From Deltaproteobacteria bacterium (GTDB taxonomy: Bacteria; Myxococcota_A; Polyangia; Polyangiales; Houyiibacteriaceae): a stretch of DNA of 64,000 bases. The stretch is taken from positions 1 through 64,000 of the forward strand of contig JAXMNT010000016.1 in NCBI GenBank assembly GCA_034670305.1, in the 5' to 3' direction. The notes beneath the pieces were generated by a model. It saw only the letters and a program-made list of their open reading frames with translations. It was not told where the DNA came from and made no database searches. Position 1 is the stretch's first letter. The number at the start of each line of letters is the position of its first letter. The translations under genes and the position numbers were made by a program. Positions 3,241-16,903 of this stretch are shown here, piece after piece.

Positions 3241-5544
3241 CTACTTGAGGCGTTCGCCGGGATCCAAGAACGCGATCGGCGCGGCGAGGCATTCGTCCGG
3301 GATGCCGAACGCTTCGCAGAACCCGAGCGCGTTCGAACCCACTTCGTCGATCAGCTCGTCGACCTCGTCGCGGATGGCGGTCGCTTTGGCGCTCTCGAAG
3401 ATGTCGTTCTCGAGGAACCAACCCACGTCCGCTTCGATCCGCCACAGGCCAAACAGATCCAACGCCTGATCGAGTGCCGCGCGGACCTGCGTGTCCTCGG
3501 CCGCGGAAACGCCATCGGCGAACGCGTCGAAGACCAGCCGCTCCATCGTGGCCCGCGCCATCGCGAGCACGTGGTTCTGCACTCCGAGGAACGCGTCCGC
3601 TACGTTCATGCCCGACTTGGTGCGCGACTGAATGCGGCGCGCGACCGACTCCACCAGCGACGACTCGCGCAGCTCGAGGGCGCCGCGCACGAACTCGCGG
3701 CTGCGAAGGTGTTCTTCGCTTCGAAGCCGCCGCGCGATCGGGTTGCTCTGGTTCCAGTGGCGCCCGGCTTTGTCCGTGATGAAACGAAGCACGCCAAGGA
3801 CCTGGGAATCGCGGAACTGACGCTTGAAGTCGCTGAGGCGTGCCTTGGCGACGAGCTGCAGGAGCACTGTGTTGTCGCCCTCGAAGGTGGTGAACACGTC
3901 GCTGTCGCTCTTGAGCGGACCGATGCGGTTGGCGGCCAGGTACCCCTGCCCGCCGCACGCCTCGCGACATGCTTGAAGCGACATGGTGGCGTGGTCGGTG
4001 CCGAACACCTTGGCCGCCGCCGCGAACATCTCGACCTCGCGGGAGTCGCCGCCCGGTTCTTGGTCGAGGAACATGCGCCGCGCCTTGGCCACCGCGAAGT
4101 GGGCGGCCAGGCCCTGCGCCAACATCGGCACCAGCCGCCGACGATGCGCTGGGTACTGCCACAGCCGCATCTCCGGCTTGCCGGGTTCGCCGAACTGCCG
4201 GCGCGACGCGCCGTACCGGAGCGCGATGGCGAGCCCGACCTTCGACGCACTGACGCTGCCCGAAGCGACGCACACCCGGCCCGCGACGAGTGTGCCGAGC
4301 ATGGTGAAGAAACGGCGGGACTGGCTCGGGATCGGACTGGCGTAGGCGCCCTCGTCGGTGATGCTCCCGTACCGGTCGAGCAGGTTGTCGCGCGGGACGC
4401 GCACGTGGTCGAACCAGATCCGGCCGTTGTCCACGCCGTTGAGCCCGAGCTTGTAACCGCAGTCCCCGAGTCGAACCCCTTCGGTCGGGTTGCCTTCGTC
4501 GTCGCGGATGCGAACCAGGATCGCGTGCACGCCGTGGGTCTCGCCATTCACGACCAGCTGCGCGAACACGGTCGCCATCTTGGCGTGGAGCGCTGCGTTT
4601 CCGATCCACTCCTTGCGGGCCGACTCGCTCGGCGTGTGCACGACGATCTCGTCGGTCTCGGGATCGTAGGTGGCGGTGGTCTCGAGCCCCATCACGTTCG
4701 AGCCGTGGCCGAGCTCGGTCATGGCGAAGCAACCCGGCAACTTCAACGAAGCGATGTCCCGCACGTAGGCGTCGTGGTGCTTCTTCGTGCCGAGGAAAAA
4801 CACACTCCCGCCGAACAGACCGAAGTGCACCCCCATCTTGACCAAGAGATCGAGGTCCCCATATCCGAGCGTCTCGAACGCGGCCATGAACGGGCCCATG
4901 TTCTCGTCCTCGCTGGTGATCCCAGGGTACGCCATCGCGCCGATGCCGCGGTCGGTGAGGATCTGGAGGAGTTCGAGCACGCGCTCGCGCCGTTCTCCGT
5001 AGGGCCGGGTCCGGTCGAGCCGGTGCGCGGGGTCCGCCAGAAATGTGCGCGCGATGGTCCGGGCTTCCATCCACTCGGGTTCGAGCGCGGCGCGCATCGC
5101 GTCTGGATCGAACCGCGCGTCGAACGCGGGCGCCGGCGGTCCCGACTCCGCGCCATCGGACGCGCCGGCCGCACTGAACAGGGCCGCTACCGACAACCCC
5201 TCGAGCCCGAGCGCTTCGACGACCGATGCGAAGGCGGCCGCGTCTTGCGTCGAGAGCGCACCGGCCATCGCGGCGATCGAATGCCGTTCCGACTCCGCGA
5301 GCGTCGCGGCCGAGGTGCGCGTCGCCGCAAGCCATGATTGAAGTTGCTGCGGAGAGGGCGGGGCATCCACGTCCAGCCACGCCGCGAGCTGCGTCCGCGC
5401 CTTCGCATCGAGCCACGGGCTCTCGACGATGCGCTGTTGCAACGCGCCGACTTCTTCCCGCGTCAGATCACCATCCGCCCACGCGAGGTAAAGGATGGGG
5501 AGAAACGGTCGGAGCTGCGGATCCTGCAATGCGGCGTCGGTCAT
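3241..5544 (-). CDS. Acyl-CoA dehydrogenase/oxidase with an extra N-terminal domain
   Basis: GCFAMTELGHGSNV, KEWIGNA, GLNGVDNGRIWF, REACGGQGY, TTFEGDNTVL are acyl-CoA oxidase/dehydrogenase motifs. Start uncertain (5544/5556). Confidence 0.88.
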   Translation of the reverse strand: MTDAALQDPQLRPFLPILYLAWADGDLTREEVGALQQRIVESPWLDAKARTQLAAWLDVDAPPSPQQLQSWLAATRTSAATLAESERHSIAAMAGALSTQDAAAFASVVEALGLEGLSVAALFSAAGASDGAESGPPAPAFDARFDPDAMRAALEPEWMEARTIARTFLADPAHRLDRTRPYGERRERVLELLQILTDRGIGAMAYPGITSEDENMGPFMAAFETLGYGDLDLLVKMGVHFGLFGGSVFFLGTKKHHDAYVRDIASLKLPGCFAMTELGHGSNVMGLETTATYDPETDEIVVHTPSESARKEWIGNAALHAKMATVFAQLVVNGETHGVHAILVRIRDDEGNPTEGVRLGDCGYKLGLNGVDNGRIWFDHVRVPRDNLLDRYGSITDEGAYASPIPSQSRRFFTMLGTLVAGRVCVASGSVSASKVGLAIALRYGASRRQFGEPGKPEMRLWQYPAHRRRLVPMLAQGLAAHFAVAKARRMFLDQEPGGDSREVEMFAAAAKVFGTDHATMSLQACREACGGQGYLAANRIGPLKSDSDVFTTFEGDNTVLLQLVAKARLSDFKRQFRDSQVLGVLRFITDKAGRHWNQSNPIARRLRSEEHLRSREFVRGALELRESSLVESVARRIQSRTKSGMNVADAFLGVQNHVLAMARATMERLVFDAFADGVSAAEDTQVRAALDQALDLFGLWRIEADVGWFLENDIFESAKATAIRDEVDELIDEVGSNALGFCEAFGIPDECLAAPIAFLDPGERLK

Positions 5545-5607
5545 GGGCGAGAGCATACCCAAACCCCTGCCCAGCCCGAAGCACGGCGGAACGACTCCGC
5601 GTCGGCA

Positions 5608-6522
5608 CTACCGCCTGCGCACGTACGCCCCTTCCCGCGCTTCGATCCACCCGAGCACGACCAACTCCAGCAGCGCGCTCTGCACCTCGCGCACCGGCAT
5701 TCCGACCGCCGCACACAATGCGTCGCAGGTGCGCGGGGTGGAGGAGAGTTGCTCGAGCACCCGGCGCAGAGGCGGTGACAGTTCCTGCCCATGATCTCGG
5801 GCCCCGCTGGCCAGCGTGGGTTCGCTGGCAGGCGCGGGTCCGGCGGAAGTCGCGCGGGCTCCTCGGGCCTTTGGCTTCGACGGGACCGCCAGCCCGAGGA
5901 CCCGTCTCACGTCGTCCGCGTCACGGCAGAGCACCGCCCCGCCGGCCAGCAGATCCAGGTTGCCCGCGCCCCGGAGATCCCAGGGCGCAGCCGGCAGGGC
6001 GAGCACCGTGCGTCCGAGCGCGCGGGCATGGCGCGCGGTGTTCAAAGCGCCGGAGCGCCGCGGCGCCTGCACGACGACCACCACCTCAGCGAGCGCCGCG
6101 ATGATCCGATTGCGGCGGAGAAAACGCCCACGGTGGGGCGGCACGTCGCGGTATTCGCTGACGAGGGCCCCACTCGAAGCGACCTCCGCGAACAGGTCCG
6201 CGTGGCACGTCGGGTACGCCCGCTCCACGCCGTTCGCGAGCACCGCCACCGTCGGCAAGCCCACCTCCAGCGCGGCCTGGTGGGCGGCTGCGTCGACCCC
6301 CAACGCACCGCCGCTCACCACCGCCAGACCGAGGTCGCGAACCAAGCGCGCGGTGAATCGAAGCGCCTCCGGGTCGGCCCGGCGCGTGCCGACGATCGAG
6401 ACCCGCGGCCCTGGAGGGAGCACACCCACCACGAACAGTTCCGCAACTCGGGTCTTCAATCCGTCGAGGCCCGGGTCCCAGCCGACTTCTCCTGGTGCCA
6501 GACGAACGACGGAGAGGTCCAT
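5608..6522 (-). CDS. dprA: DNA-processing protein DprA (Smf)
   Basis: SIVGTR, VVSGGALGVDAAAH, FLRRNRIIAAL, SGALNTA and a C-terminal winged helix. Start 6522 or 6540. Confidence 0.92.
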   Translation of the reverse strand: MDLSVVRLAPGEVGWDPGLDGLKTRVAELFVVGVLPPGPRVSIVGTRRADPEALRFTARLVRDLGLAVVSGGALGVDAAAHQAALEVGLPTVAVLANGVERAYPTCHADLFAEVASSGALVSEYRDVPPHRGRFLRRNRIIAALAEVVVVVQAPRRSGALNTARHARALGRTVLALPAAPWDLRGAGNLDLLAGGAVLCRDADDVRRVLGLAVPSKPKARGARATSAGPAPASEPTLASGARDHGQELSPPLRRVLEQLSSTPRTCDALCAAVGMPVREVQSALLELVVLGWIEAREGAYVRRR

Positions 6523-6621: not shown

Positions 6622-8049
6622 ATGTCGAACCTCGAATCGAGTGCGGTGGTGACGGTGGTCGGTGCCGGCCTCGCGGGCAGCGAGTGCGCCTGGCAGCTCG
6701 CTGAGCGCGGGGTGAACGTTCGGTTGCTCGAGCAGAAACCGAAGCGGCGGACGCCTGCGCAGCAGTCCGACTTCTTCGCCGAGCTCGTCTGCTCGAACTC
6801 GTTTCGCGGGGCGGGGCTGGCGAACGCGGTCGGACTGCTCAAGATGGAGATGCTGCGGGCGGGTTCGCTGATCATGCAGGTGGGGCTGGAAACGCGCGTG
6901 CCTGCGGGCGGGGCATTCGCCGTCGATCGCGAACGCTTCGGCCCAGAGGTGACGCGGCGGCTTCACGAACATCCGCGCATCGAGGTCGTCTGCGAGGAGG
7001 TCGATGCCCTGCCGAAGGCGCCCGAGGCGCACACGCCCTGGGTGATCGCCACCGGTCCCCTCACCACCGACGCACTCGCAGCCGATCTGGCCGCGACCGT
7101 GGGTCAGCAGCACTTGGCGTACTACGACGCGATCGCACCGGTGGTGGTCGCGGAGTCGATCCGCTGGGACGAAGTGTTCGAGAAGTCACGCTACGACAAG
7201 GGCGGCACATCCGACTACATCAACTGCCCGATGGACGAAGCGACGTACGATGCGTTCATCGCCGCCCTGCTCGCCGCCGATGTCGCAGGCGAGAAAGAGT
7301 TCGAGAAACTGAAGTACTTCGAAGGCTGCCTGCCGATCGAAGTCATGGCGTCGCGTGGAAGACTCACCCTCGCGTACGGACCGATGAAACCGGTTGGGCT
7401 CGAGGACCCGGAGACCGGCATCCGCCCATTCGCGGTGGTTCAGCTCCGGGCGGAAAACCGGGCGCGCACGTCGTTCAACCTCGTCGGCTTCCAGACCCGG
7501 ATGAAGTGGCCGGAGCAGAAGAAGGTGCTGCGCATGATTCCCGGCCTGCAAGACGCGGAGTTCGAGCGGCTGGGTTCGGTCCACCGCAACACGTTCGTGA
7601 ACGCGCCCGAAGTGCTCGACCCAGAGACACTCGCGCTCAAGGCGCGGCCGAACGTGTACCTCGCCGGCCAGGTGAGTGGGGTCGAGGGGTACATCGAGAG
7701 CGCGGGGTGTGGCTTGGTGATCGGCGCGATGCTCGGCGCCCGGCTTCATGGCGAGACGTGGGCCGAGCCGCCCGTCGAATGTGCGCTGGGCGCCCTGCTC
7801 ACCCACCTGCGCACGCCGCGGCCGGACTTTCAGCCGTCGAACGTGGTGTGGAGCCTGGTGCCTCCGCTCAAGGGGCGGCGGATCCGGAAGCGGCGCGAGC
7901 GGAGAGAGAAGCTTGGGCACCGGGCGCTCGAAGCGCTCGAGCCATGGCTGGACGCATCGGGCGCACGCGAGGTGCAGGCACGCTTCGAACCGGTGCCGGA
8001 CGCGGCCCTGTTCGAGTCCGAATCCGAAGCCGCGGCCAAGCAGCTGTAA
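6622..8049 (+). CDS. trmFO: Methylenetetrahydrofolate--tRNA-(uracil-5-)-methyltransferase TrmFO (Gid)
   Basis: VVGAGLAGSECAWQLA, ELVCSNSF, YYDAIAP, YFEGCLPIE, GPMKPVGL, LVGFQT, GSVHRNTF, AGQVSGVEGY. Confidence 0.97.
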   Translation: MSNLESSAVVTVVGAGLAGSECAWQLAERGVNVRLLEQKPKRRTPAQQSDFFAELVCSNSFRGAGLANAVGLLKMEMLRAGSLIMQVGLETRVPAGGAFAVDRERFGPEVTRRLHEHPRIEVVCEEVDALPKAPEAHTPWVIATGPLTTDALAADLAATVGQQHLAYYDAIAPVVVAESIRWDEVFEKSRYDKGGTSDYINCPMDEATYDAFIAALLAADVAGEKEFEKLKYFEGCLPIEVMASRGRLTLAYGPMKPVGLEDPETGIRPFAVVQLRAENRARTSFNLVGFQTRMKWPEQKKVLRMIPGLQDAEFERLGSVHRNTFVNAPEVLDPETLALKARPNVYLAGQVSGVEGYIESAGCGLVIGAMLGARLHGETWAEPPVECALGALLTHLRTPRPDFQPSNVVWSLVPPLKGRRIRKRRERREKLGHRALEALEPWLDASGAREVQARFEPVPDAALFESESEAAAKQL

Positions 8050-8086
8050 GCGCGAAGCAGCCGAAGCCGAAGCCGAAGCCTCGGGC

Positions 8087-10372
8087 TCAGTCGGTGGCGC
8101 GCGGGACGATGATGACGACCTGTTTCTCGTCGAGCACGGTGATGCCGTCGCCGATGACCTGGAGGGTCACGGTGAAGACCTGGTCCTCGTCGAGTTCGGC
8201 CACGGTGTCGTTGAACGCGATGATCGTGAAGCTCACGATCGTGCCTGGCGTGAGATCGACGAACGAGTCGAAGATGCTGTCGCCGTCGAGGTCGGCGACC
8301 GAGGGGGAAGGGGCACCCGGCGGCGGGGTCGCCGAACGAGGAATGGTCGCCTTGATGAAGTTGTTCGGATCTCCGACCACTCGGATGGAGACCGTGTCGA
8401 GACTGATCGAGGTGACGAGATCGTTGACCGCGTCCACCAATGTGTCTGCGAGACCGGAGCCGTTCTCGCGCGCGTCGAACACGAGCGGGCAGACTTCCGT
8501 CCCGTCGGCCAACATGTCCGGCGGCCGCGCCGAACCGGAGATCCCGGTGAAGCAGTCACCGCCGGTGGGCGGGATGTAGGTCTCGGTGTCGAGCGCGAGT
8601 TGCACGAGCTGCGCGCGCGCTTCGCTCCGACTCGCGACACCAATGAACCGCGCCGACAGAGCCCCGAACGCAGTCACGACGTCGTCGTGGTCGTGGGTCC
8701 CGGTGATGCCCATCGCTGCGTAATCCGCCGGGATGTGGCTCGTCGCGTCGGTGACGTGGATGACCATGGGGAACGCGTCGTCGCGGAATCCGACGCCGCC
8801 GCGCGTGCCCTCCGCGCCTGGCGTCGGGGTGAAGGGAGGTACGGCACCGCCGCGGAACGTGATGCCCTCCCCCGTCGCGATTTGGTAGAGCGCTTCGTAA
8901 CCGGATTCGGGAAGATCGGCGCCGCAGCCGAGCGGCATGTCGAGCACCCGGATGGCGCTGTCGACCCGACCGACCACCGTCGTGATGGGCTGAAGCAACT
9001 TGAACGGCTGGTCGGGATCGCCCGCCGCACCGCCGCAGTTCAGGTTGCCGAACGGGTTGATTGGGAAGTCTTCGTATTCGCTCACGCCGAACGCGGTGTC
9101 CGGAATGAACGCGCGGATGCCCGGAATCACCGAGGTCCGGATCGACGACTGGAGGTTGTTGATCTCGCCACTCATCGAGCCGGTGGTGTCCACGCTCACG
9201 TGGACATCCGCGCGCCGGATGTTGGTGTCGAAGGTGAGCGTGGCGGCCTTCTCGCCGCTGGGGTCGTCTTCCGGAAGGATGAAGAAGAACTCGGGGATCA
9301 TCGACGACGGGTCGCAGGGGTCGGTGCCCGCCGTGACCTCAGCCAGGTCCGTCTGGCCATCGCCATCGGTGTCCGGGTCGGTGGGATCCATACATCCCGA
9401 CTCGCCTTCGTCACGGTCGCTGACGCCATCCGCATCGGAGTCGAGGTCGCGGAAGTCCGGGATGCCGTCGCGGTCGGAGTCGACCGGCTGGGTGCCGGGG
9501 TCGCGGTCGCCCGCTTCGATGCGATCAGGGATGCCGTCGTCGTCGGAGTCGTTGTCGCGGAAGTCCGGGCGGCCGTCGCCGTCGGTGTCGATCCCCGACT
9601 CCGCGCCTTCGTCGATGTCCGCGATCGTGTCTCCGTCGGTGTCGGTGAGATCACGGATCGGAATGCAGCGCGACGTCCGGCAGACGCTGTCGCTCGGACA
9701 ACGCACCCCGCAGCCGCCGCAGTTGTCGTCGTTCATCTCGGTGTTGACGCAGGAGCTCGCGCAGTCGGTCGTGCCGCTCGGGCACTCGAGCACGCAGTCG
9801 CCCATCGAACAGCTTTCGTCGAGGCCGCAGAACCGCCCGCAGGATCCGCAGTTGCGGGGATCGACCGCGGTGTCCACGCAACTCTCGTCGCATCGATCGA
9901 GCGGCACGGGACAGGTGTCGGTGCAGCTGCCAGCGGAGCAGAATCCGGTGTCGCCGCAGGAGCGACCGCACGCACCGCAGTGAGACGGGCTCACGTCGAG
10001 GTCGACGCACACGTCGCCGCATACCTCGAGGGGGCAGGTGTCGGAGCAGCCGCCCGACGCACAGAACTGGCCAGGTCCACACGCGATGCCACAGCCCCCG
10101 CAGTGGTTGAGGTCCACGTCGAAGTCGACGCACTCGTCGCCGCACAACCCGAGCACGCCGGGGCACATCGGACCACCGTCGATCGGGCCGACGTCCGGTC
10201 GAGGCATCCCGGTATCCAAGCCCGGACCCACATCGATCCCAGGACCCGCGTCGAACCCACCACCATCGACCCCAGGACCGGTGTCGTCGCGTGAAAAGTC
10301 GTCGAGCCACCCCCGGCTGCCGCAGCCCACGGAGAGAAAAGTCAAAGCTGCCAACAAGAGGGAGACGCGCAT
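8087..10372 (-). CDS. Secreted/lipoprotein with Cys-rich repeats, DxDxDG Ca-binding repeats and a VWA-like domain (CglD-like architecture)
   Basis: Lipobox-like LSVGC; repeats CVDxxxxxxHCGxCGxxC; DTDGD/DSDDDG/DSDRDG repeats; VDTTGSMSGE (MIDAS-like) and PESGYEALYQ. Confidence 0.8.
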   Translation of the reverse strand: MRVSLLLAALTFLSVGCGSRGWLDDFSRDDTGPGVDGGGFDAGPGIDVGPGLDTGMPRPDVGPIDGGPMCPGVLGLCGDECVDFDVDLNHCGGCGIACGPGQFCASGGCSDTCPLEVCGDVCVDLDVSPSHCGACGRSCGDTGFCSAGSCTDTCPVPLDRCDESCVDTAVDPRNCGSCGRFCGLDESCSMGDCVLECPSGTTDCASSCVNTEMNDDNCGGCGVRCPSDSVCRTSRCIPIRDLTDTDGDTIADIDEGAESGIDTDGDGRPDFRDNDSDDDGIPDRIEAGDRDPGTQPVDSDRDGIPDFRDLDSDADGVSDRDEGESGCMDPTDPDTDGDGQTDLAEVTAGTDPCDPSSMIPEFFFILPEDDPSGEKAATLTFDTNIRRADVHVSVDTTGSMSGEINNLQSSIRTSVIPGIRAFIPDTAFGVSEYEDFPINPFGNLNCGGAAGDPDQPFKLLQPITTVVGRVDSAIRVLDMPLGCGADLPESGYEALYQIATGEGITFRGGAVPPFTPTPGAEGTRGGVGFRDDAFPMVIHVTDATSHIPADYAAMGITGTHDHDDVVTAFGALSARFIGVASRSEARAQLVQLALDTETYIPPTGGDCFTGISGSARPPDMLADGTEVCPLVFDARENGSGLADTLVDAVNDLVTSISLDTVSIRVVGDPNNFIKATIPRSATPPPGAPSPSVADLDGDSIFDSFVDLTPGTIVSFTIIAFNDTVAELDEDQVFTVTLQVIGDGITVLDEKQVVIIVPRATD

Positions 10373-10491
10373 GCCCGCAAAGTACGCCACTCCGCAGCCA
10401 GGGACCAGTCGGGTCCCCATGAATCCGGCACGTTCTGACCCGGCGGGGCACCGAACTCGACCGCACACTCACCATCCGGCCGAGCCAAGTT

Positions 10492-10527
10492 AAAAACAAA
10501 ACGCCTCGAGCAAGCTCGAGGCGTTTT
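10492..10527 (-). terminator. Rho-independent terminator ending a minus-strand transcript
   Basis: Minus strand reads CGCCUCGAG-CUUG-CUCGAGGCG followed by UUUUGUUUUU; perfect inverted repeat at 10498-10527. Confidence 0.88.
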
Positions 10528-13280
10528 GGAAGGTCGACTTTCATCACCGAATCTCGGTCTCCGAAGAGCCTCGATTCCTTCGCGGTCGTTTCGAACACTG
10601 GCCTAGCGTTCCCGACTCCCACGAACCGCCGATGGGCGGGCGACGACGTGGTCTCGCTCATGACACGAGACCCACACACGTCTTTGGGTAGGTTTGAACC
10701 GCCTCGGGCACTCCGAAGAGTGCTTCGAGGGCCCGACGACTCCGAAGAGCTGCCGGGTCATGGGTGGCGTAATTGCCTCCCATGCAACGTTCCATCGCGA
10801 TTCATCCGAGGATGAATTCACGAGCTTCGACCGACGTGTGTGATGCACCCGTCTGGCGACGGGCCGTGCGCTGTTGCGCACTGTGCTGACATACCGTGTT
10901 CCTTCTCGGGTTCCGAAGAATCCGCGAGTCGAGCGGGCACTCGAACCCTTGGTGCGAACCAAAAGTCGAATGTCGCTCGGTATGCCCGTATCCGCTTTCG
11001 CGGTTCCGCGTCATTGGGAGCCACCCTCTGCGTGCTGAACGGCCTGTTTTAGGTTCCGCGCGATGCCCTTGCCTCGTTGGTCCGAAGACCGCCGTTGACT
11101 CGTGCACCCCGTCCCTCTCGGGATTCTCACTGGGAGAGCTTGTGTCACTCACATATCGATGTCTGATGTCTTGGTCGTCGAACTGGCACCTGCACGTTGG
11201 TTCCACGGCCGGTTTCGACTCTCGTCGCCCTCGACCCCTCCGTACCTGTCTCGTCTTCTTCACCCGACCCTTTGCTCCGAGGAGCACTGGACTCGAGGAG
11301 TGGAAGCACCCGCTCGACCAAGAACCACCCGTTCGCCACCGAAGTGACGTGCCGTTTGGTCCCGACATCTCTCGTCGTCTTCTGGTCCGCGCGAAGCCAA
11401 GCTCCGCCCACACTCGATGTTCACCGAACCATCGCGCGATGCGCGCGGTTCGAGTGCCCTCTTCGGTTCACGCTGGGTAACCAGTCGCTCTCCGAGGAGT
11501 TGTCCCACCGCACGAATGCTGGGGACTGCACGCGATGTTCCTGAGCCCAAGTTGGACAAGCCAACTCGAGCGAGAAACTGCTGAATCATCGCCACACCCA
11601 TTTCACTTCGAAATGCCTGGTCCTTGCGCTGCCCGAAGACTGCGCCCGGTTTTCTCCATTCATTTCGCCCCTCCTCTCAAACCCGTTGCCGGGTCTGGAC
11701 GAACTTCCGAAGAAGCACGTTCCCATTGCTGGCCAAGTGACTTCCGGAGAAGTCCCATGGTGGCGCAGGGTTGGCGTTCCATTCGAGCTCGGCGAACCGA
11801 GGAACGAACTTCTTGCCTGGGGCACCGACTCCATCGCGCCGCGGTCTCTCGACCGGCAGCCCAGACGCAGAACGTCTGGTCGAGCGCTGGCGAACCAGCA
11901 CTGCTGTTCTCTCTCGAGAGCGATGGGCACTCGCTTTCACGAACACCTCTGAGTCGACTTGTTCTCTCGTGACGCCGTGTGATTCCCCGTCCGTCGCGAA
12001 TGTCCAAAGACGTTCGCGGCCGAACCCGAAACCTGCACGACCTTCGTTGGCCTTCCCCCGATCGGCTCCTCGCCGGACCGTGTTTCCACGTTCCCGCGCA
12101 AGCTTCTCGCTGCGCACGCGAGACCCGAAGATCTCCGTGCTCCCTCCCTTCGACTCTCTCGAGCCGTCTTTCGAAACGGAAGAGGGTTGGTCCTGAACCC
12201 GCCCGAGCTCGGTCTTGCGACCGGTTCGTTCGTTGGTGCGAAGCACCTGGTTCAACCGAAGTCACACGCGTTGCCGCGTGTCCTGTCCAATCCACGTTGG
12301 CTCTCGCCAAACCTCACCGACGAATCGGCGTGGCTGCCCGAGGGTGCTCCCCCCGGTTGCCCAAACACGTTGCCGCGCTTGGGTCGTGGCTCTCGAAACG
12401 GTGCACGAATGCACCGCCTCGACGAGATCTGGATGCGTCGAATCGACGATTTGCAACCTACCTATTTGTTTTTCAAAGACGCACACCCGCGTTTCGATGC
12501 GGTGTTCTTTCTCGCCGTCCTGCGCGAACGCCGAGGAGCCGAAGCGCGACACCTCGCGCTGACCCGTGTTGGTCGTCCGTTCGCTCGTCCAGCCCGTTGT
12601 CGGGGCCTCGTGAGCGGGGAGACCAACCTTCTTCGTCATTCGCGGTCTCGTGAGCTGGATTTCTCAGCTCGGACACCGGCGAATCGAGATGTTCGGTGCG
12701 TGCGACACGTCCCGGACCGAAGTCGCGAGAGGGTGTGTGCCGACACGTCGTTTCACCCGAAGAAGTCTCTCTTCGAAGTCTTGCACGCGGCCTTTTGAAC
12801 CGGTGAAGCCTCGATTTCGATGTGCAAAGAACACTGCCGCGAGCATTTTCGCGAACTCAGCCCCGACTTGCGTCGGTGGGTGCGAACCCAGCCGAACCAC
12901 CTTCCCCGAGGAGCTTCCTCCCACCCTGGGTTGCCCCATGGTGCGTCCGTCCAACGAGTTGAACGAAGCGGACGCTGCCCCCGAATCCGAATGATTCGCC
13001 ATCCAGTGCTCCCTCCCGAAGAAGGGCTCCCTTCCGAAGAAGCGAGGTCGTCTCGTGGACATCGCTCGACTGGCGCCGATCGACCTCCGCGAAACCAAGG
13101 ATTGGCAAGCCAATCCGCTGAATGGTTCCAGCAAGACCCGTGTCCCCCTCCTTGCGGAGCGGACCACTGGCGGTGACGCGAACGTCATCGCACTCGACCT
13201 TCCTCGACCGAAGTCTCGGTTGGCCGTGCCCCCTGCCTTCTGCGGCTCAGAAACTCGCGGTGTGTGTCCCGCGACCTTCG
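10492..13280 (-). ncRNA. Candidate very large (~2.8 kb) structured non-coding RNA of unknown class
   Basis: No credible CDS; dense minus-strand hairpins with UUCG/GNRA/CUUG loops (e.g. 10708-10723, 11079-11090, 11681-11694, 11788-11801, 11842-11855, 12210-12223, 12265-12280, 12399-12416, 12863-12876, 13148-13159); long-range complementarity between 13194-13203 and 10528-10537; promoter at one end, terminator at the other. 5' boundary is estimated. Confidence 0.75.
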
Positions 13281-13286
13281 AGAGTG

Positions 13287-13345
13287 TTTCTATCCGATGG
13301 CCCAACTCATTGCAAGAAGAAAAGGCAGGTCAATGCACTTTTTTT
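13287..13345 (-). promoter_or_regulatory. Sigma70-like promoter region driving the candidate RNA
   Basis: Minus strand: A-tract (AAAAAAAGTGCA), then TTGACC (13333-13328); alternatively TTGCAA (13315-13310)-17 bp-TAGAAA (13292-13287). AT-rich island in a GC-rich genome. Confidence 0.55.
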
Positions 13346-13390
13346 ATCCACAACACGCCGCGGAGCCATTCCCAAGTTTTCCACAACACG
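13344..13390. promoter_or_regulatory. Two DnaA boxes within a 14-bp direct repeat
   Basis: TTATCCACA (13344-13352, perfect) and TTTTCCACA (13377-13385, one mismatch), each followed by ACACG; 33-bp period. Confidence 0.65.
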
Positions 13391-13567
13391 TCGCGCAACG
13401 CTGTTTTTACGGGGCTTTTGGGATCGCCCCTCCCGACCGACCCGCCATTCAAACGTTTGATTACCGGAAAGAATCTTGTTTGTATCTACGCAATCTATGC
13501 GCACTGATAACTTCCGGCACCGCACACCCGTTTCTTGACCACGGGCTCGAAACCGTTGAGAAATCTG

Positions 13568-14125
13568 GTGGTGCCCCAAGCGCTTCAAACCTGGTTCCCG
13601 TGGGCCCTGGCCGGGACCTTGCTCGCCCTCCTACTGGGCCAGGTGGGCCGGCTCAGACGTCTCCGGAGCCAGCCGAAGCGCCGGATGGAACGGGCCAGGA
13701 TCCAAGGCGCGGCCGGGGAGGCCCGCGCACCTCAAATCCTTCGAGAAGCGGGGTACCGGGTGATCGCCCACCAACCCGAGGCCATGCACCCGCTGCGCAT
13801 CGACGGCTCCACAGTGACGTTCCCCGTACGCGCGGACTTTCTCGTGGCCCGCGGCGGGCAGCGTTTTGTCGCGGACGCAAAGACCGGCGCCTCGGCGCGC
13901 CTGAGCCACCGCGGCACCCGCCGGCAGCTGCTGGAGTACGCGCTCGCGTACGAGGTCCATGGCGTACTCCTCGTCGACGCCGACGCCGGGACCGTGTCAC
14001 GCCTCGAGCTTCCGCCCCGCCGCGTGCACTGGCCAGTCCTGGTCGCCGCGCTGCTGGTCGGCGCCGCGCTCGGCGGCTGGGTCCACGCCCGATGGATCAC
14101 CCCACCCAGCGCCCAAGCCGACTGA
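13568..14125 (+). CDS. Membrane-anchored PD-(D/E)XK nuclease-like protein
   Basis: Hydrophobic N- and C-terminal segments; core GEARA..L...GY, RADFLV, ADAKTG, RRQLLEY fits a restriction-endonuclease-like fold. Confidence 0.65.
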   Translation: MVPQALQTWFPWALAGTLLALLLGQVGRLRRLRSQPKRRMERARIQGAAGEARAPQILREAGYRVIAHQPEAMHPLRIDGSTVTFPVRADFLVARGGQRFVADAKTGASARLSHRGTRRQLLEYALAYEVHGVLLVDADAGTVSRLELPPRRVHWPVLVAALLVGAALGGWVHARWITPPSAQAD

Positions 14126-14163
14126 AGTCGCCAGCGGCTTCGGCTTCGGCGTCGGCGAGGCCG

Positions 14164-15534
14164 CTAACCGAACACGGTGAGCAGCGTCGGCACCACGATG
14201 CCGATGACCAGAAACGCGATGGCGGTGTATCCCACGATGTCCTTCGCCTCGAGCCGCATGATGCCGAGCAATGGGAGGGCCCAGAACGGCTGGAGCATGT
14301 TCGTCCAGGCGTCTCCGTAGCTGAACGCCATCACCGCGGTCGCGGGGTCGACGCCCAGATCGTGGGCGGCGGTCATGAGCACCTCGCCCTGCACCGCCCA
14401 CTGGCCCCCACCGGAGGGCACGAAGAGGTTCACGACACCGGCCGAGAGAAACGCGAGCGCGGGGAACGAGGTCTGAGTCGCGATGGAGACCAGGCCGTCG
14501 CTGAGCCACGCGATCATGCCGGCGGCTTTCATCACGCCAAGGATCCCAAAGTAGAACGGGAACTGCAGCACGATGCCGCCCGCGCCCTTGGCGCCGTCCG
14601 TGACCGCCTTGGCGTACGCGACGACCGACCCCTGCAGGCTCAAGCCGATGAAGAGAAACAGGAGGTTCACCAGATCGAGGTCGAGGCTCAGCGGTCCGAA
14701 CATCCATGCGTCGAAGACGAACAGGAACCCGGTGAGCCCGAAGACGCCGCCGACCCACTTCGAGTGCTGGAGCCAACCAACGACGCCGGAACCCTGCGCG
14801 CGGTCAGGCGCAACCTCCTTCGGGACATCGACGGGTTCTTCGGAGAGTGGAATCAGCTGCGCTGGGTCGCTCGGGGTCAGCACATAGAACAGCACCGGCA
14901 ACAGCAGGACGAGCGTGCCGGTCACGATGAGGTTGAGTGGAGAGAACAGCGTCTCCGAGACGGGCAAGACGCCCGTCAGCGCCTCGACGAAGTGACCCTG
15001 CTCCGCGACCTTCAAAGGCGCCGATCCACTGAACCCGCCGTGCCAGACCGCGAAGCCCGAGTACGCGGCGGCTCCGAGCAGCGGGTAGTGCACCGGCCTG
15101 CCGACCCGCTTCGCGTACCGTCCCATCTCCCGGGCCAGAAACGCGCCAACGATCGCCCCGAGCCCCCAGTGCGCGACGGCACTCAAACAGGAGACGAAGG
15201 CCACCAGCGCCGAGGCACTGGCGGCGGTCGGTGCGCGGCGCGAGAACCAGACGACAACACGCTGCACGGGCGGAGACGTGGCGAGCGCGTGTCCCGTGAC
15301 CAGCACGAGACACATCTGGAGCGCGAACGCCAAGAGCGGTCGACTGGAGAAACCCTCGACCCAGCCCGGCACCAACACCGCCGGGCTCCCGCCCGTCGCC
15401 AGAAGTCGCCAGGCACCCAGCGCGAACACGACAACCGTCAGCAAGAGCGCGAGCAGAAACGGCTCCGGAACCCAGCGTCGTGCACCTCGGGCGAACCGAT
15501 CCCCGAGTCGCGTGACGAGGCTGGTCCCGCTCAC
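14164..15534 (-). CDS. atoE: Short-chain fatty acid transporter (AtoE/TIGR00366 family)
   Basis: LAFALQMCLVLVTGHALA, YPLLGAAAYSG, QFPFYFGI, NLFVPSGGGQWAVQG, GDAWTNMLQPFWALPLL. Confidence 0.88.
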   Translation of the reverse strand: MSGTSLVTRLGDRFARGARRWVPEPFLLALLLTVVVFALGAWRLLATGGSPAVLVPGWVEGFSSRPLLAFALQMCLVLVTGHALATSPPVQRVVVWFSRRAPTAASASALVAFVSCLSAVAHWGLGAIVGAFLAREMGRYAKRVGRPVHYPLLGAAAYSGFAVWHGGFSGSAPLKVAEQGHFVEALTGVLPVSETLFSPLNLIVTGTLVLLLPVLFYVLTPSDPAQLIPLSEEPVDVPKEVAPDRAQGSGVVGWLQHSKWVGGVFGLTGFLFVFDAWMFGPLSLDLDLVNLLFLFIGLSLQGSVVAYAKAVTDGAKGAGGIVLQFPFYFGILGVMKAAGMIAWLSDGLVSIATQTSFPALAFLSAGVVNLFVPSGGGQWAVQGEVLMTAAHDLGVDPATAVMAFSYGDAWTNMLQPFWALPLLGIMRLEAKDIVGYTAIAFLVIGIVVPTLLTVFG

Positions 15535-15535
15535 G

Positions 15536-16903
15536 TCAGTGCCCGCGCTTGTCGAGCGCCCGATGGATCTCACCGAGCACCGTGTCCGGGTCGCTCCCCA
15601 TCTCGAATGGCACGTTCGCGTAGGTCGAGTCGAACTCGAGCGCCTGTCGGTGGTAGGCCGACTTGAACTCGGTGAACTTCAACCCGTGGGCGGTCGAGAC
15701 GACCACCACCCGCTCGTGGCGCTGGATGGTCTTGGCTGCGACGAGCTTCTCGAGGCACGCGAGCGCGACGCCGGTGTGGGGACAGTTGAACATGCCGGTG
15801 CGGTCGGCGCGGGCGACCGCGTCGGCGAGCTCGGGCTCGGTGGCCTGTTCGACGATGCCGCGGCACGCGACGAGGGCCCGCACCGCTTTGGGGAGCGACA
15901 CCGGGTTGCCGATGCGGATGGCCGACGCGAGGGTCTCGCCCGCTTCCATCGGCTCGAAGTCAGCTTCGGTGAGATCGCGGTTCTCCGCTTCGGCGCGCTT
16001 GTACGCGAGGTAGAGCGGGTTGGCCTTGGCGGCCTGGCAGCAGACCAGGCGCGGGAGTTTGGCGATGATGCCGAGCTCCTTCATCTCGAGGAAGCCTTTG
16101 GCGATCGCGGACACGTTGCCGAGGTTGCCGCCGGGCACGAGCACCCAGTCGGGCACCTCCCAGTCGAACTGCTGCACCATCTCGAGCGAGATGGTCTTCT
16201 GACCTTCGACCCGCAGCGAGTTCATGGAGTTGGCCAGGTAGATCGACCGGTCTTCGGTGAGCCGCTGCACCACCCGCATGCATCCGTCGAAGTCGGTGTC
16301 GAGCGCGCACACGAGCGCGCCATTGGCCATCGGCTGGACGAGCTGGGCGGCGGTGATCTTGCCCTTTGGAAGCAACACGACCACCGGGATGTTCGCCGCC
16401 GCACCATAGGCGGCGAGCGCCGCGCTCGTGTCTCCGGTCGACGCGCACGCGACCGCGCGGATGGGTTGGCCCTCCGAGATCATCTGCTTCACCGACGAGA
16501 CGAGCACCGTCATGCCGAGGTCCTTGAAGCTGCCGGTGTGGCTCGTGCCACACTGCTTGACCCACAGGTCGTCGAGACCGACGTGTTCCTTGCCGTAGCG
16601 CTCCGCCCAGAAGAGGTTGGTGTTGCCCTCGTAGAGGGAGACCACGTTCTCGGGCGCGACGTGCGGCTGGACCCACTCGTGTTTGCTCCAGACCCCACTG
16701 CCGTAGGGCCAGCGGGTGCGGCCGTAGCGTTCGTCGAAGACCCGCATCCACCCGGCGGCGCTCCGCTGCTTGAGCGCGTCGAGATCGTGCACGACCTCGA
16801 GCAACGAGCCCGTGGTGGGGCATCGGTAGATGACTTCGTTGAGCGGATGCCGGGCGTCGCCCGCGTCCGCCGACACACTCTGGAACCAGGCACGCGGCTG
16901 CAT
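15536..16903 (-). CDS. thrC: Threonine synthase
   Basis: [17 protein letters not shown] (PLP Lys), [42 protein letters not shown]. Confidence 0.95.

Follow-up and report, generated by a model that had tools for sequence, protein, structure and literature searches.

We describe here a giant structured noncoding RNA (ncRNA) encoded in a 64,000-nucleotide stretch of the genome of a marine myxobacterium (Deltaproteobacteria bacterium, assembly GCA_034670305.1, contig JAXMNT010000016.1, positions 1 to 64,000 of the forward strand), which we refer to as the window. An initial annotation, made from the letters alone, had singled out the block at 10492-13280 as a gap between genes, and had read its minus strand as one ncRNA of the size of a ribosomal RNA (rRNA) and of an undescribed class. 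Our analysis bears this reading out, as the block matches no Rfam family, carries no coding signal, is spanned from end to end by contigs from RNA libraries, and covaries among its homologues. We are highly confident that the segment running from 13279 to 10492 on the minus strand genuinely encodes a giant structured ncRNA, and that this ncRNA represents a new family. The family is previously uncatalogued and comes from a clade of the order Polyangiales (Myxococcota). That the molecule is a single-copy giant structural RNA and also works as a scaffold is, taken as one proposition, slightly favored in our estimate. To our knowledge, it is longer than any described folded bacterial RNA except ribosomal RNA.

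All 20 hairpins listed in the initial annotation are present on the minus strand with the same coordinates and loop classes and with fully paired stems of 3-7 bp; its remark that several stems extend only through G-U pairs did not hold up, as such pairs are rare (one in total across the 20 listed stems). Counting stems of at least 4 bp (G-U pairs allowed) with UNCG, GNRA or CUUG loops, we find 37 capped hairpins on the minus strand of 10492-13280, compared with 4.58 ± 2.11 in dinucleotide shuffles, 0 of 1000 of which reach 37. The plus strand holds 5, compared with 3.41 ± 1.87, and 251 of 1000 shuffles reach that number. The minus strand is thus strongly enriched and the plus strand is not, and it is from this asymmetry (37 versus 5) that the strand of the transcript is taken; the motif CTTCGG alone has 16 occurrences on the minus strand against a single one on the plus strand. 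A scan of both strands of the entire 7.9-Mb assembly (21,928 windows of 2.8 kb) gave a mean of 3.5 capped hairpins with a standard deviation of 2.0, and the giant RNA locus is the maximum of that distribution. The second-ranked separate locus, with 18 hairpins, directly precedes the 23S gene and probably corresponds to the 16S region. Expressed per kilobase, the block holds 13.3 capped hairpins, the 23S rRNA of the same genome 2.3, and the stretch upstream of 23S, which presumably comprises 16S plus spacers, 6.6. Folding z-scores in 200-nt windows on the minus strand of 10400-13399 are negative, that is, better than shuffles, in 13 of 15 windows, with a best value of -6.4, and those of the flanking coding windows average slightly positive. 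A span-limited minimum free energy (MFE) fold of the window RNA has 72 hairpins, 35 of them with UNCG, GNRA or CUUG caps, and pairs 68% of the bases.

That the block is a noncoding gap, as first proposed, is confirmed by the loss of codon-position GC periodicity, which amounts to 0.3-0.5 in both flanking genes and to 0.01-0.24 across 10200-13350, and by a Pfam search in which none of the six longest internal open reading frames (ORFs) reaches the cut-off (a single one has a sub-threshold match, at 17 bits against a cut-off of 27). The block also falls outside the known RNA families. As had been expected, the Rfam 15 covariance models give no match at gathering score in the window region, and at E ≤ 10 just two chance-level matches appear (E 6.2 and 9.8), both far under the gathering score; ten homologous loci gave no Rfam 15 match either. 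The models without a match include those of GOLLD, ROOL, OLE, HEARO and raiA along with every other family of that release. The family is likewise undescribed in the literature that we searched in full text, subscription journals and supplementary files lying outside this search.

Several specific identities were considered and rejected. An rRNA or a degenerate copy of one finds no match to the Rfam large or small subunit models even at E ≤ 10, and the true 23S gene, on another contig, scores 2852 bits with the large subunit model. Hyper-expanded forms of RNase P RNA, 6S RNA, transfer-messenger RNA or signal recognition particle RNA were set aside as well, all four canonical genes scoring above their cut-offs elsewhere in the assembly; since these and the 23S gene exist in ordinary form, the block is not an overgrown housekeeping RNA. 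A group II intron or retroelement RNA does not fit an element with no Rfam match, with no Pfam family above the cut-off in any of its six longest internal ORFs, and with a single copy in the genome. A sponge of the CsrB/RsmZ type, which would bind CsrA, was discarded because GGA occurs in none of the 72 predicted hairpin loops. Finally, the internal direct repeats of the block are short (16-23 nt), which excludes both a tandem array of one unit and a tandem-repeat origin of the expansions described below.

Two long-range helices organize the RNA. The first is a terminal helix that joins nucleotides 1-8 of the transcript, GAAGGTCG (13272-13279, minus strand), to the 8 nt directly before the terminator, CGACCTTC (10529-10536, minus strand), which are followed by CAAAA and the terminator itself; all eight positions of 13279-13272 pair with 10536-10529. 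This helix is kept in every lineage irrespective of the length of the RNA. It extends to 11 bp in a subgroup with RNAs of 2.3 kb, the consensus fold of the 1.09-kb form likewise pairs the extreme 5' end with the segment directly before the terminator, and one lineage has an additional A in the 5' strand together with a matching additional T in the 3' strand. A conserved 5' hairpin with a 6-bp stem and an 8-nt loop (13255-13274, minus strand), predicted by the span-limited MFE fold and by conservation, overlaps the terminal helix by 3 nt.

The second is a core helix built on a conserved island. Island strand a, CGTCTTTG (12474-12481, minus strand), is near-invariant in 34 aligned homologues and pairs at eight of eight positions with a' (10686-10679); island strand b, GGTAGGTT (12455-12462, minus strand), which is followed by an invariant GCA, pairs at eight of eight with b' (10694-10687). 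The two 3' partner strands form a continuous 16-nt segment (10679-10694, minus strand), and the conserved A-rich internal loop of 11 nt that separates the island strands (12463-12473, minus strand) has no opposing nucleotides in it; the leading AAAA of this loop is invariant in 34 of 34 sequences. The island lies about 800 nt from the 5' end and its partner about 190 nt from the 3' end, so that the helix spans 1.8 kb (1795 nt from island to partner in the window RNA). The same arrangement, with eight of eight and at least seven of eight pairs, was found in 32 of 54 sequences, and in two more by a separate pattern; the remaining sequences are shortened contigs, two loci without a recognizable island, or cases in which simple scoring picked another site. 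More than 15 different complementary versions of the second strand pair exist across the family, and between the window RNA and the 1.09-kb form up to four of its eight pairs are changed on both sides. The core helix encloses a middle domain (10695-12454, minus strand) in which, judging from island-partner distances and the hairpins of the MFE fold, the majority of the tetraloop hairpins and of the length variation are found. Island and partner are about 480 nt apart in the smallest relatives and 2412 nt apart in the longest, and the distance from partner to 3' end stays at about 100-190 nt in all lineages, which indicates that the length differences of the family reside mainly in this domain. 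Together, the terminal and core helices argue that the block is one folding unit, and make it unlikely that it is a series of independent small RNAs, the polycistronic set that the initial annotation had offered as its alternative.

Covariation in homologues, which had been proposed as a check, is strong. Alignments were made within subgroups and on anchors, a global MAFFT alignment of 12 genomic RNAs having failed to align the island. For the first ~1 kb of the 2.3-kb subgroup (13 sequences; identity 54-98%, as taken from a related full-length alignment), RNAalifold predicts 294 pairs in 41 helices with 96.2% of the cells paired, and 75 of these pairs are changed on both sides, compared with 22.2 ± 3.6 in shuffles, 0 of 500 of which reach 75, and with 10-22 when the structure is slid by 1-3 columns. 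The covariation score behaves in the same manner, at 0.183 for the alignment, 0.115 for shuffles and 0.034-0.055 for the slid controls. In 20 sequences of the 1.09-kb form, 80 of 299 predicted pairs are compensatory. The consensus folding energy of seven sequences over ten 240-column windows is -720 kcal/mol in the sense direction, -571 in antisense and -475 after column shuffling, and the sense direction is better than antisense in nine of the ten windows. The window RNA itself was compared with a contig of 96.7% identity, the sole close relative of it that was used as sequence. The two differ by 65 substitutions, of which 40 fall at sites paired in the span-limited MFE fold; 34 of these 40 retain the pair, compared with 18.8 ± 1.7 predicted by random placement at paired sites.

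Contigs from RNA libraries suggest that the block may be transcribed as one molecule. Ten libraries held 7-10% of the sampled words, and the contigs of four of them were compared with positions 8000-16000 of the window. In library X11, a single contig of 2726 nt lies on 10533-13270 and has sequencing-adapter letters at both ends; in X10, which comes from a different study, a single contig of 2667 nt lies on 10635-13270; contigs of X17 and X18 likewise end at 13270 and 13268. These contigs come from a relative with an identity of about 90% to the window. In four hypervariable segments of the minus strand (11949-12140, 10706-10816, 11033-11097 and 11437-11580) that relative has unlike sequence of similar length, 190, 109, 63 and 142 nt respectively being skipped and 192, 116, 65 and 122 letters substituted. 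The flanks at 8000-10400 and 13340-16000 are uncovered save for a few short, unrelated contig pieces, and the contig depth figures are 188 and 36; we draw no inference from either. Some of these pieces, 36-44 nt long and from unrelated contigs, fall at 9335-9601, in the repeats of the downstream lipoprotein gene, with less than 90% identity. They are probably TSP3-type repeats of other organisms and not evidence that the lipoprotein gene is expressed.

The primary transcript, of about 2.79 kb, appears to run on the minus strand from near 13279, where a conserved, non-canonical promoter would place its start, to the end of the T run of an intrinsic terminator at 10492. The terminator, which had been claimed for this end of the block, is indeed there: a terminator scan reports a 14-bp stem (10528-10497) with a CTTG loop and a T run (10491-10528, minus strand), and strong equivalents occur at 11 of 12 homologous genomic loci. 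The promoter claimed for the other end stood in part, in that a strict sigma-70 match is not found and a promoter-like block (13287-13315, minus strand) is conserved, with TTGCAA at 13315-13310, a 17-nt spacer and TAGAAA at 13292-13287. Its position and spacing are kept in all seven aligned loci and predict a start near 13279. Because the strict scan does not report this block, we infer the promoter assignment from its conservation. The RNA-library contigs begin about 9 nt downstream of the predicted start, and in a sister lineage four public contigs begin within 1 nt of each other at positions homologous to 13270-13271, which is 8-9 nt after the first G of a conserved GAAGG motif. The contig starts at 13270-13271 may reflect either the loss of the first ~10 nt that is common in library preparation or trimming at the terminal helix.

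The upstream region has a common order in the seven aligned loci, namely two or three 9-mers of the type TGTGGAWAA, an A7 tract, a T-rich stretch, TTGCA(A), the 17-nt spacer, a TA-rich hexamer, and the invariant RNA start 7-8 nt further on. In the window, two of these 9-mers are candidate DnaA boxes, matching the consensus with at most one mismatch. Box 2 (13344-13352, plus strand) is a perfect match and is followed on the RNA strand by the A7 tract; box 1 (13377-13385, plus strand) has one mismatch; both are kept in homologues. The two lie 33 bp apart, no other match exists in the window, and they form one of just two same-strand pairs within 60 nt genome-wide, the other being on contig C46 near 18064 (plus strand). 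A reading of these boxes as part of oriC was rejected: dnaA sits on another contig, and in a complete relative that carries the RNA gene on a 9.07-Mb chromosome it is 4.8 Mb away, so the locus is not the replication origin. No similar boxes were seen upstream of the rRNA genes, where the contig ends close by.

Homologues, a search for which across Myxococcota had also been proposed at the outset, were located in Polyangiales. BLAST with the 2.9-kb region matches, besides the region itself, just the first ~160 nt and one island of ~55 nt; it is positive in 7 of the 40 near relatives searched and, across the order, in 9 of 400 genomes, and places the RNA in three other families of Polyangiales. 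With detection confined to those two short pieces, BLAST badly under-counts carriers, at 10 of 401 in the order: when a covariance model built on the island is run on 88 genomes of the same family, 56 are positive, each with one copy. Broken down by genus, these are 47 of 55, 3 of 3, 2 of 3 and 2 of 2 genomes, 1 of 1 in a fifth genus, and the genome of the window itself. Under strict filters, the island model was negative in all 144 genomes searched from other families of the class. In the homologous loci that we fetched, tetraloop hairpins are abundant downstream of the 5' match on the matching strand alone. A pattern scan of genomes for the island returned 39 matches, of which 31 were set aside as chance matches in AT-rich genomes and eight were retained, all in metagenome-assembled genomes (MAGs) labeled Polyangiales, Sandaracinus, 'Myxococcales' or 'Deltaproteobacteria'; the named genome records that carry the family are all MAGs. 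A corresponding scan of metagenomes reported 94 stretches, 80 of which were examined and sorted by eye on the flanking motif, GC content and strand-specific tetraloops, with 37 judged homologues and 43 set aside. Many of these homologues are contigs of 1.6-1.9 or 2.2-2.5 kb, which is close to the RNA length seen in the nearest genomes.

With length taken as the distance from the 5' motif to a strong intrinsic terminator, the homologues are about 1.76-1.86 kb (five loci), about 2.30-2.33 kb (three loci), and 2.77, 2.78 (the window) and about 3.13 kb (one each); one further locus has no recognizable terminator within 3.6 kb. The genus with the best sampling has an RNA of about 1.09 kb that varies very little in length, so that the family ranges from 1.1 kb to about 3.1 kb or more. 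The 1.09-kb form is found in genomes of ~3-5 Mb and the 1.8-3.1-kb forms in genomes of 6-9.5 Mb, a trend that is confounded by phylogeny. One relative (G036) has two copies of the RNA gene on different contigs: the first, on L015, is in the conserved neighborhood, and the second, on L014, is without both flanking genes and has a shortened island from which the second strand is missing. In a genus negative for the island (loci L194, L195 and L196, ~1300-2600), an orthologue of the neighboring PD-(D/E)XK gene is followed, as in the window, by two TGTGGA boxes, the start motif GGAAGGTCGCG and ~1 kb of lower-GC sequence lacking the CTTTGAAA island. This stretch may be a diverged, shorter homologue, in which case the family would be wider than the 56 of 88 genomes.

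What such an RNA does can be approached from its architecture. Architectural RNAs that combine a conserved core with expansions include rRNA, RNase P RNA and telomerase RNA. We favor a scaffold because the closed domain fold, the fast turnover with pairing kept, the few invariant elements, the single copy and the recovery as full-length contigs from community RNA libraries together resemble the pattern of such molecules. The RNA would then be stable and architectural in role, and would either scaffold a ribonucleoprotein (RNP) particle or assemble by itself into an RNA particle, a mechanism that we propose tentatively and rate at somewhat short of an even chance. It would consist of a conserved core plus dispensable expansion segments, and its invariant single-stranded elements (the A-rich loop, the GCA and the 5' motif) would serve as binding or docking sites, with the A-rich loop, clamped by the core helix, as the key one. 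The fast-evolving expansion segments are made of short helices with UNCG and GNRA caps arranged around conserved anchors; in the proposed mechanism, the UNCG loops may act as folding nuclei and protect from nucleases, and the GNRA loops may make tertiary contacts.

A number of observations weigh against the identity and the scaffold mechanism as we propose them, and should be considered together. The scaffold mechanism is without direct support; with the query used, the PD-(D/E)XK protein encoded next to the RNA is found in none of the 55 genomes of the genus in which the RNA is most consistently present. Neither half of the canonical 11-nt tetraloop receptor is present in the RNA. The island model is negative in 27 genomes of 12 genera, out of 18 genera in the family, and the RNA may be either dispensable in these or too diverged for detection. 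The shuffle statistics given above overstate the support for covariation, because the structures were derived from the very alignments that were scored and the sequences are kin. The RNA evidence consists of assembled contigs of a relative, which carry no strand, level or exact ends, and such libraries can contain DNA. Finally, the strict sigma-70 consensus scan places no promoter at the RNA start.

An alternative is that the same giant ncRNA is a regulator or a catalyst, that is, a decoy that titrates a protein, or a large ribozyme with the invariant island as its active site. Decoys of this kind have models in 6S RNA, which titrates RNA polymerase, and in CsrB, which titrates CsrA. The invariant A-rich loop with its flanking helices could be a specific binding site or an active site, the assembly of full-length contigs from community RNA libraries would be in keeping with a titrator that acts stoichiometrically, and the DnaA-box-like sites upstream suggest regulated expression. 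However, the lack of GGA, the motif of CsrA sponges, from the predicted hairpin loops tells against a sponge, no repeated binding motif was seen apart from the tetraloops, and a bona fide 6S RNA exists elsewhere in the genome. We regard a regulatory or catalytic role as possible but rather doubtful. A more far-reaching reading would make the giant RNA a third kind of rRNA-scale bacterial RNA machine of 1-3 kb with an invariant catalytic or docking core. The core would perform chemistry, or the RNA would assemble itself into a large particle made of RNA only; the expansion segments, studded with tetraloops, would make up an outer shell, and the DnaA-type sites would tie expression to replication or growth state. 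This is a speculative proposal that we think unlikely.

It might also be argued that the transcript is a precursor cut into several smaller stable RNAs, with no functional 2.8-kb molecule. Many of the hairpins are locally autonomous, the ends of the RNA-library contigs lie at the inner edge of the terminal helix in a manner resembling the end-processing of rRNA precursors, and internal cuts are compatible with the contig data. Nevertheless, two RNA libraries each have a single contig that spans the whole length, covariation across lineages is seen in both the terminal and the core helix, which implies that distant parts are together at least during folding, and no conserved internal promoter or terminator is seen; we consider a precursor of this kind very unlikely.

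The genomic context bears on the two remaining explanations. Downstream of the RNA, on the same strand, is a gene for an MXAN_6577-like cysteine-rich lipoprotein with TSP3/Stig1 repeats (8087-10372, minus strand), which starts 120 nt after the terminator. Upstream and divergent is a gene for a small membrane protein with a PD-(D/E)XK-like fold (13535-14125, plus strand). Each is syntenic at 8 of 12 loci, and in one genus the lipoprotein gene is not adjacent to the RNA (three of three loci). The PD-(D/E)XK protein is present in several genera where the RNA model finds nothing, and was rejected as an obligate partner, its distribution not following that of the RNA. The giant RNA could have originated in a mobile element or a defective prophage, in a manner comparable to GOLLD and ROOL, and for this one may cite its fast sequence turnover and the one relative with two copies, the second of which is outside the conserved neighborhood. 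Yet all 56 positive genomes of the family carry a single copy, the same flanking genes recur at 8 of 12 loci across families, no tRNA gene was found in window positions 1-30000, and no repeats or integrase-like ORFs were seen in the block, the wider window having been outside the annotation; a mobile origin is on these grounds highly improbable. That the RNA is a very long structured 5' leader, acting in cis on the lipoprotein gene, which follows on the same strand 120 nt past the terminator at 8 of 12 loci, is hardly credible, as a 14-bp GC-rich terminator stands between the two, the gene is not adjacent in the genus noted above, and the RNA-library contigs end before the terminator and do not enter it.

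Having favored an architectural RNA, we can compare it with known systems. Among those in eukaryotes, yeast telomerase RNA is alike in its kilobase size, its rapid evolution in sequence and length, its few short conserved elements and its variable helical arms, but has known protein partners, and no homology is implied. The likeness to 16S and 23S rRNA lies in the similar size, in domains organized by long-range helices, in a conserved core with lineage-specific expansion segments, and in the frequency of UNCG and GNRA loops. Primary rRNA transcripts, too, have their 5' and 3' ends brought together by a terminal helix, the processing stem. In contrast to rRNA, the giant RNA has a tetraloop density 2-6 times that of the rRNA regions of the same genome, is limited to part of one bacterial order, and evolves far faster in sequence. 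OLE, described as an RNA of ~600 nt that belongs to a membrane-associated RNP in Bacillota, is likewise a chromosomal, conserved ncRNA with a complex fold, and since it acts in an RNP it serves as a model for the scaffold reading. The giant RNA differs from it in belonging to another phylum, in having no Rfam match, in being 2-5 times longer, and in having no co-located partner genes, the syntenic small membrane protein not co-occurring with it; moreover, OLE is highly conserved in sequence, whereas the giant RNA family retains just short islands.

GOLLD and ROOL are presented in PMC12286853 as large ornate bacterial ncRNAs that form RNA-only nanocages, and as phage- or prophage-encoded, often beside tRNA islands. 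The giant RNA shares with them that it is large, highly structured and noncoding, with many helices and loop-mediated contacts, and by analogy it may be considered a candidate for RNA-only higher-order assembly. Unlike them, it has no match to Rfam models and measures 1.1-3.1 kb across the family (2.8 kb here), and it is single-copy and chromosomal, in a conserved neighborhood with no tRNA gene in window positions 1-30000, phage genes in the wider window being unchecked. As far as is known, and in line with PMC12286853, the large structured bacterial ncRNAs described to date reach at most ~0.8 kb. A 2.8-kb member of a family of 1.1 to 3.1 kb or more would extend the known size range of such RNAs several-fold. 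With its rRNA-like closure, its expansions and its dense covariation, the family offers a natural system for studying the folding of large RNAs, growth by expansion, and undiscovered RNA-only or RNP particles. As it recurs in environmental assemblies, the RNA may rank among the major transcripts of marine and sediment Polyangiales that have so far gone unannotated.

Two minor observations concern the surroundings of the RNA gene. In the window, a short-chain fatty acid transporter gene (PF02667, E 2e-114) lies at 14164-15573 on the minus strand, convergent with the PD-(D/E)XK-like gene. Elsewhere in the family, two loci of the same genus (L012, ~4700, and L013, ~4280-6246) are collinear through the RNA gene with 89.6% identity over 3.2 kb, and one of the two species has ~1.97 kb of extra sequence directly after the terminator.

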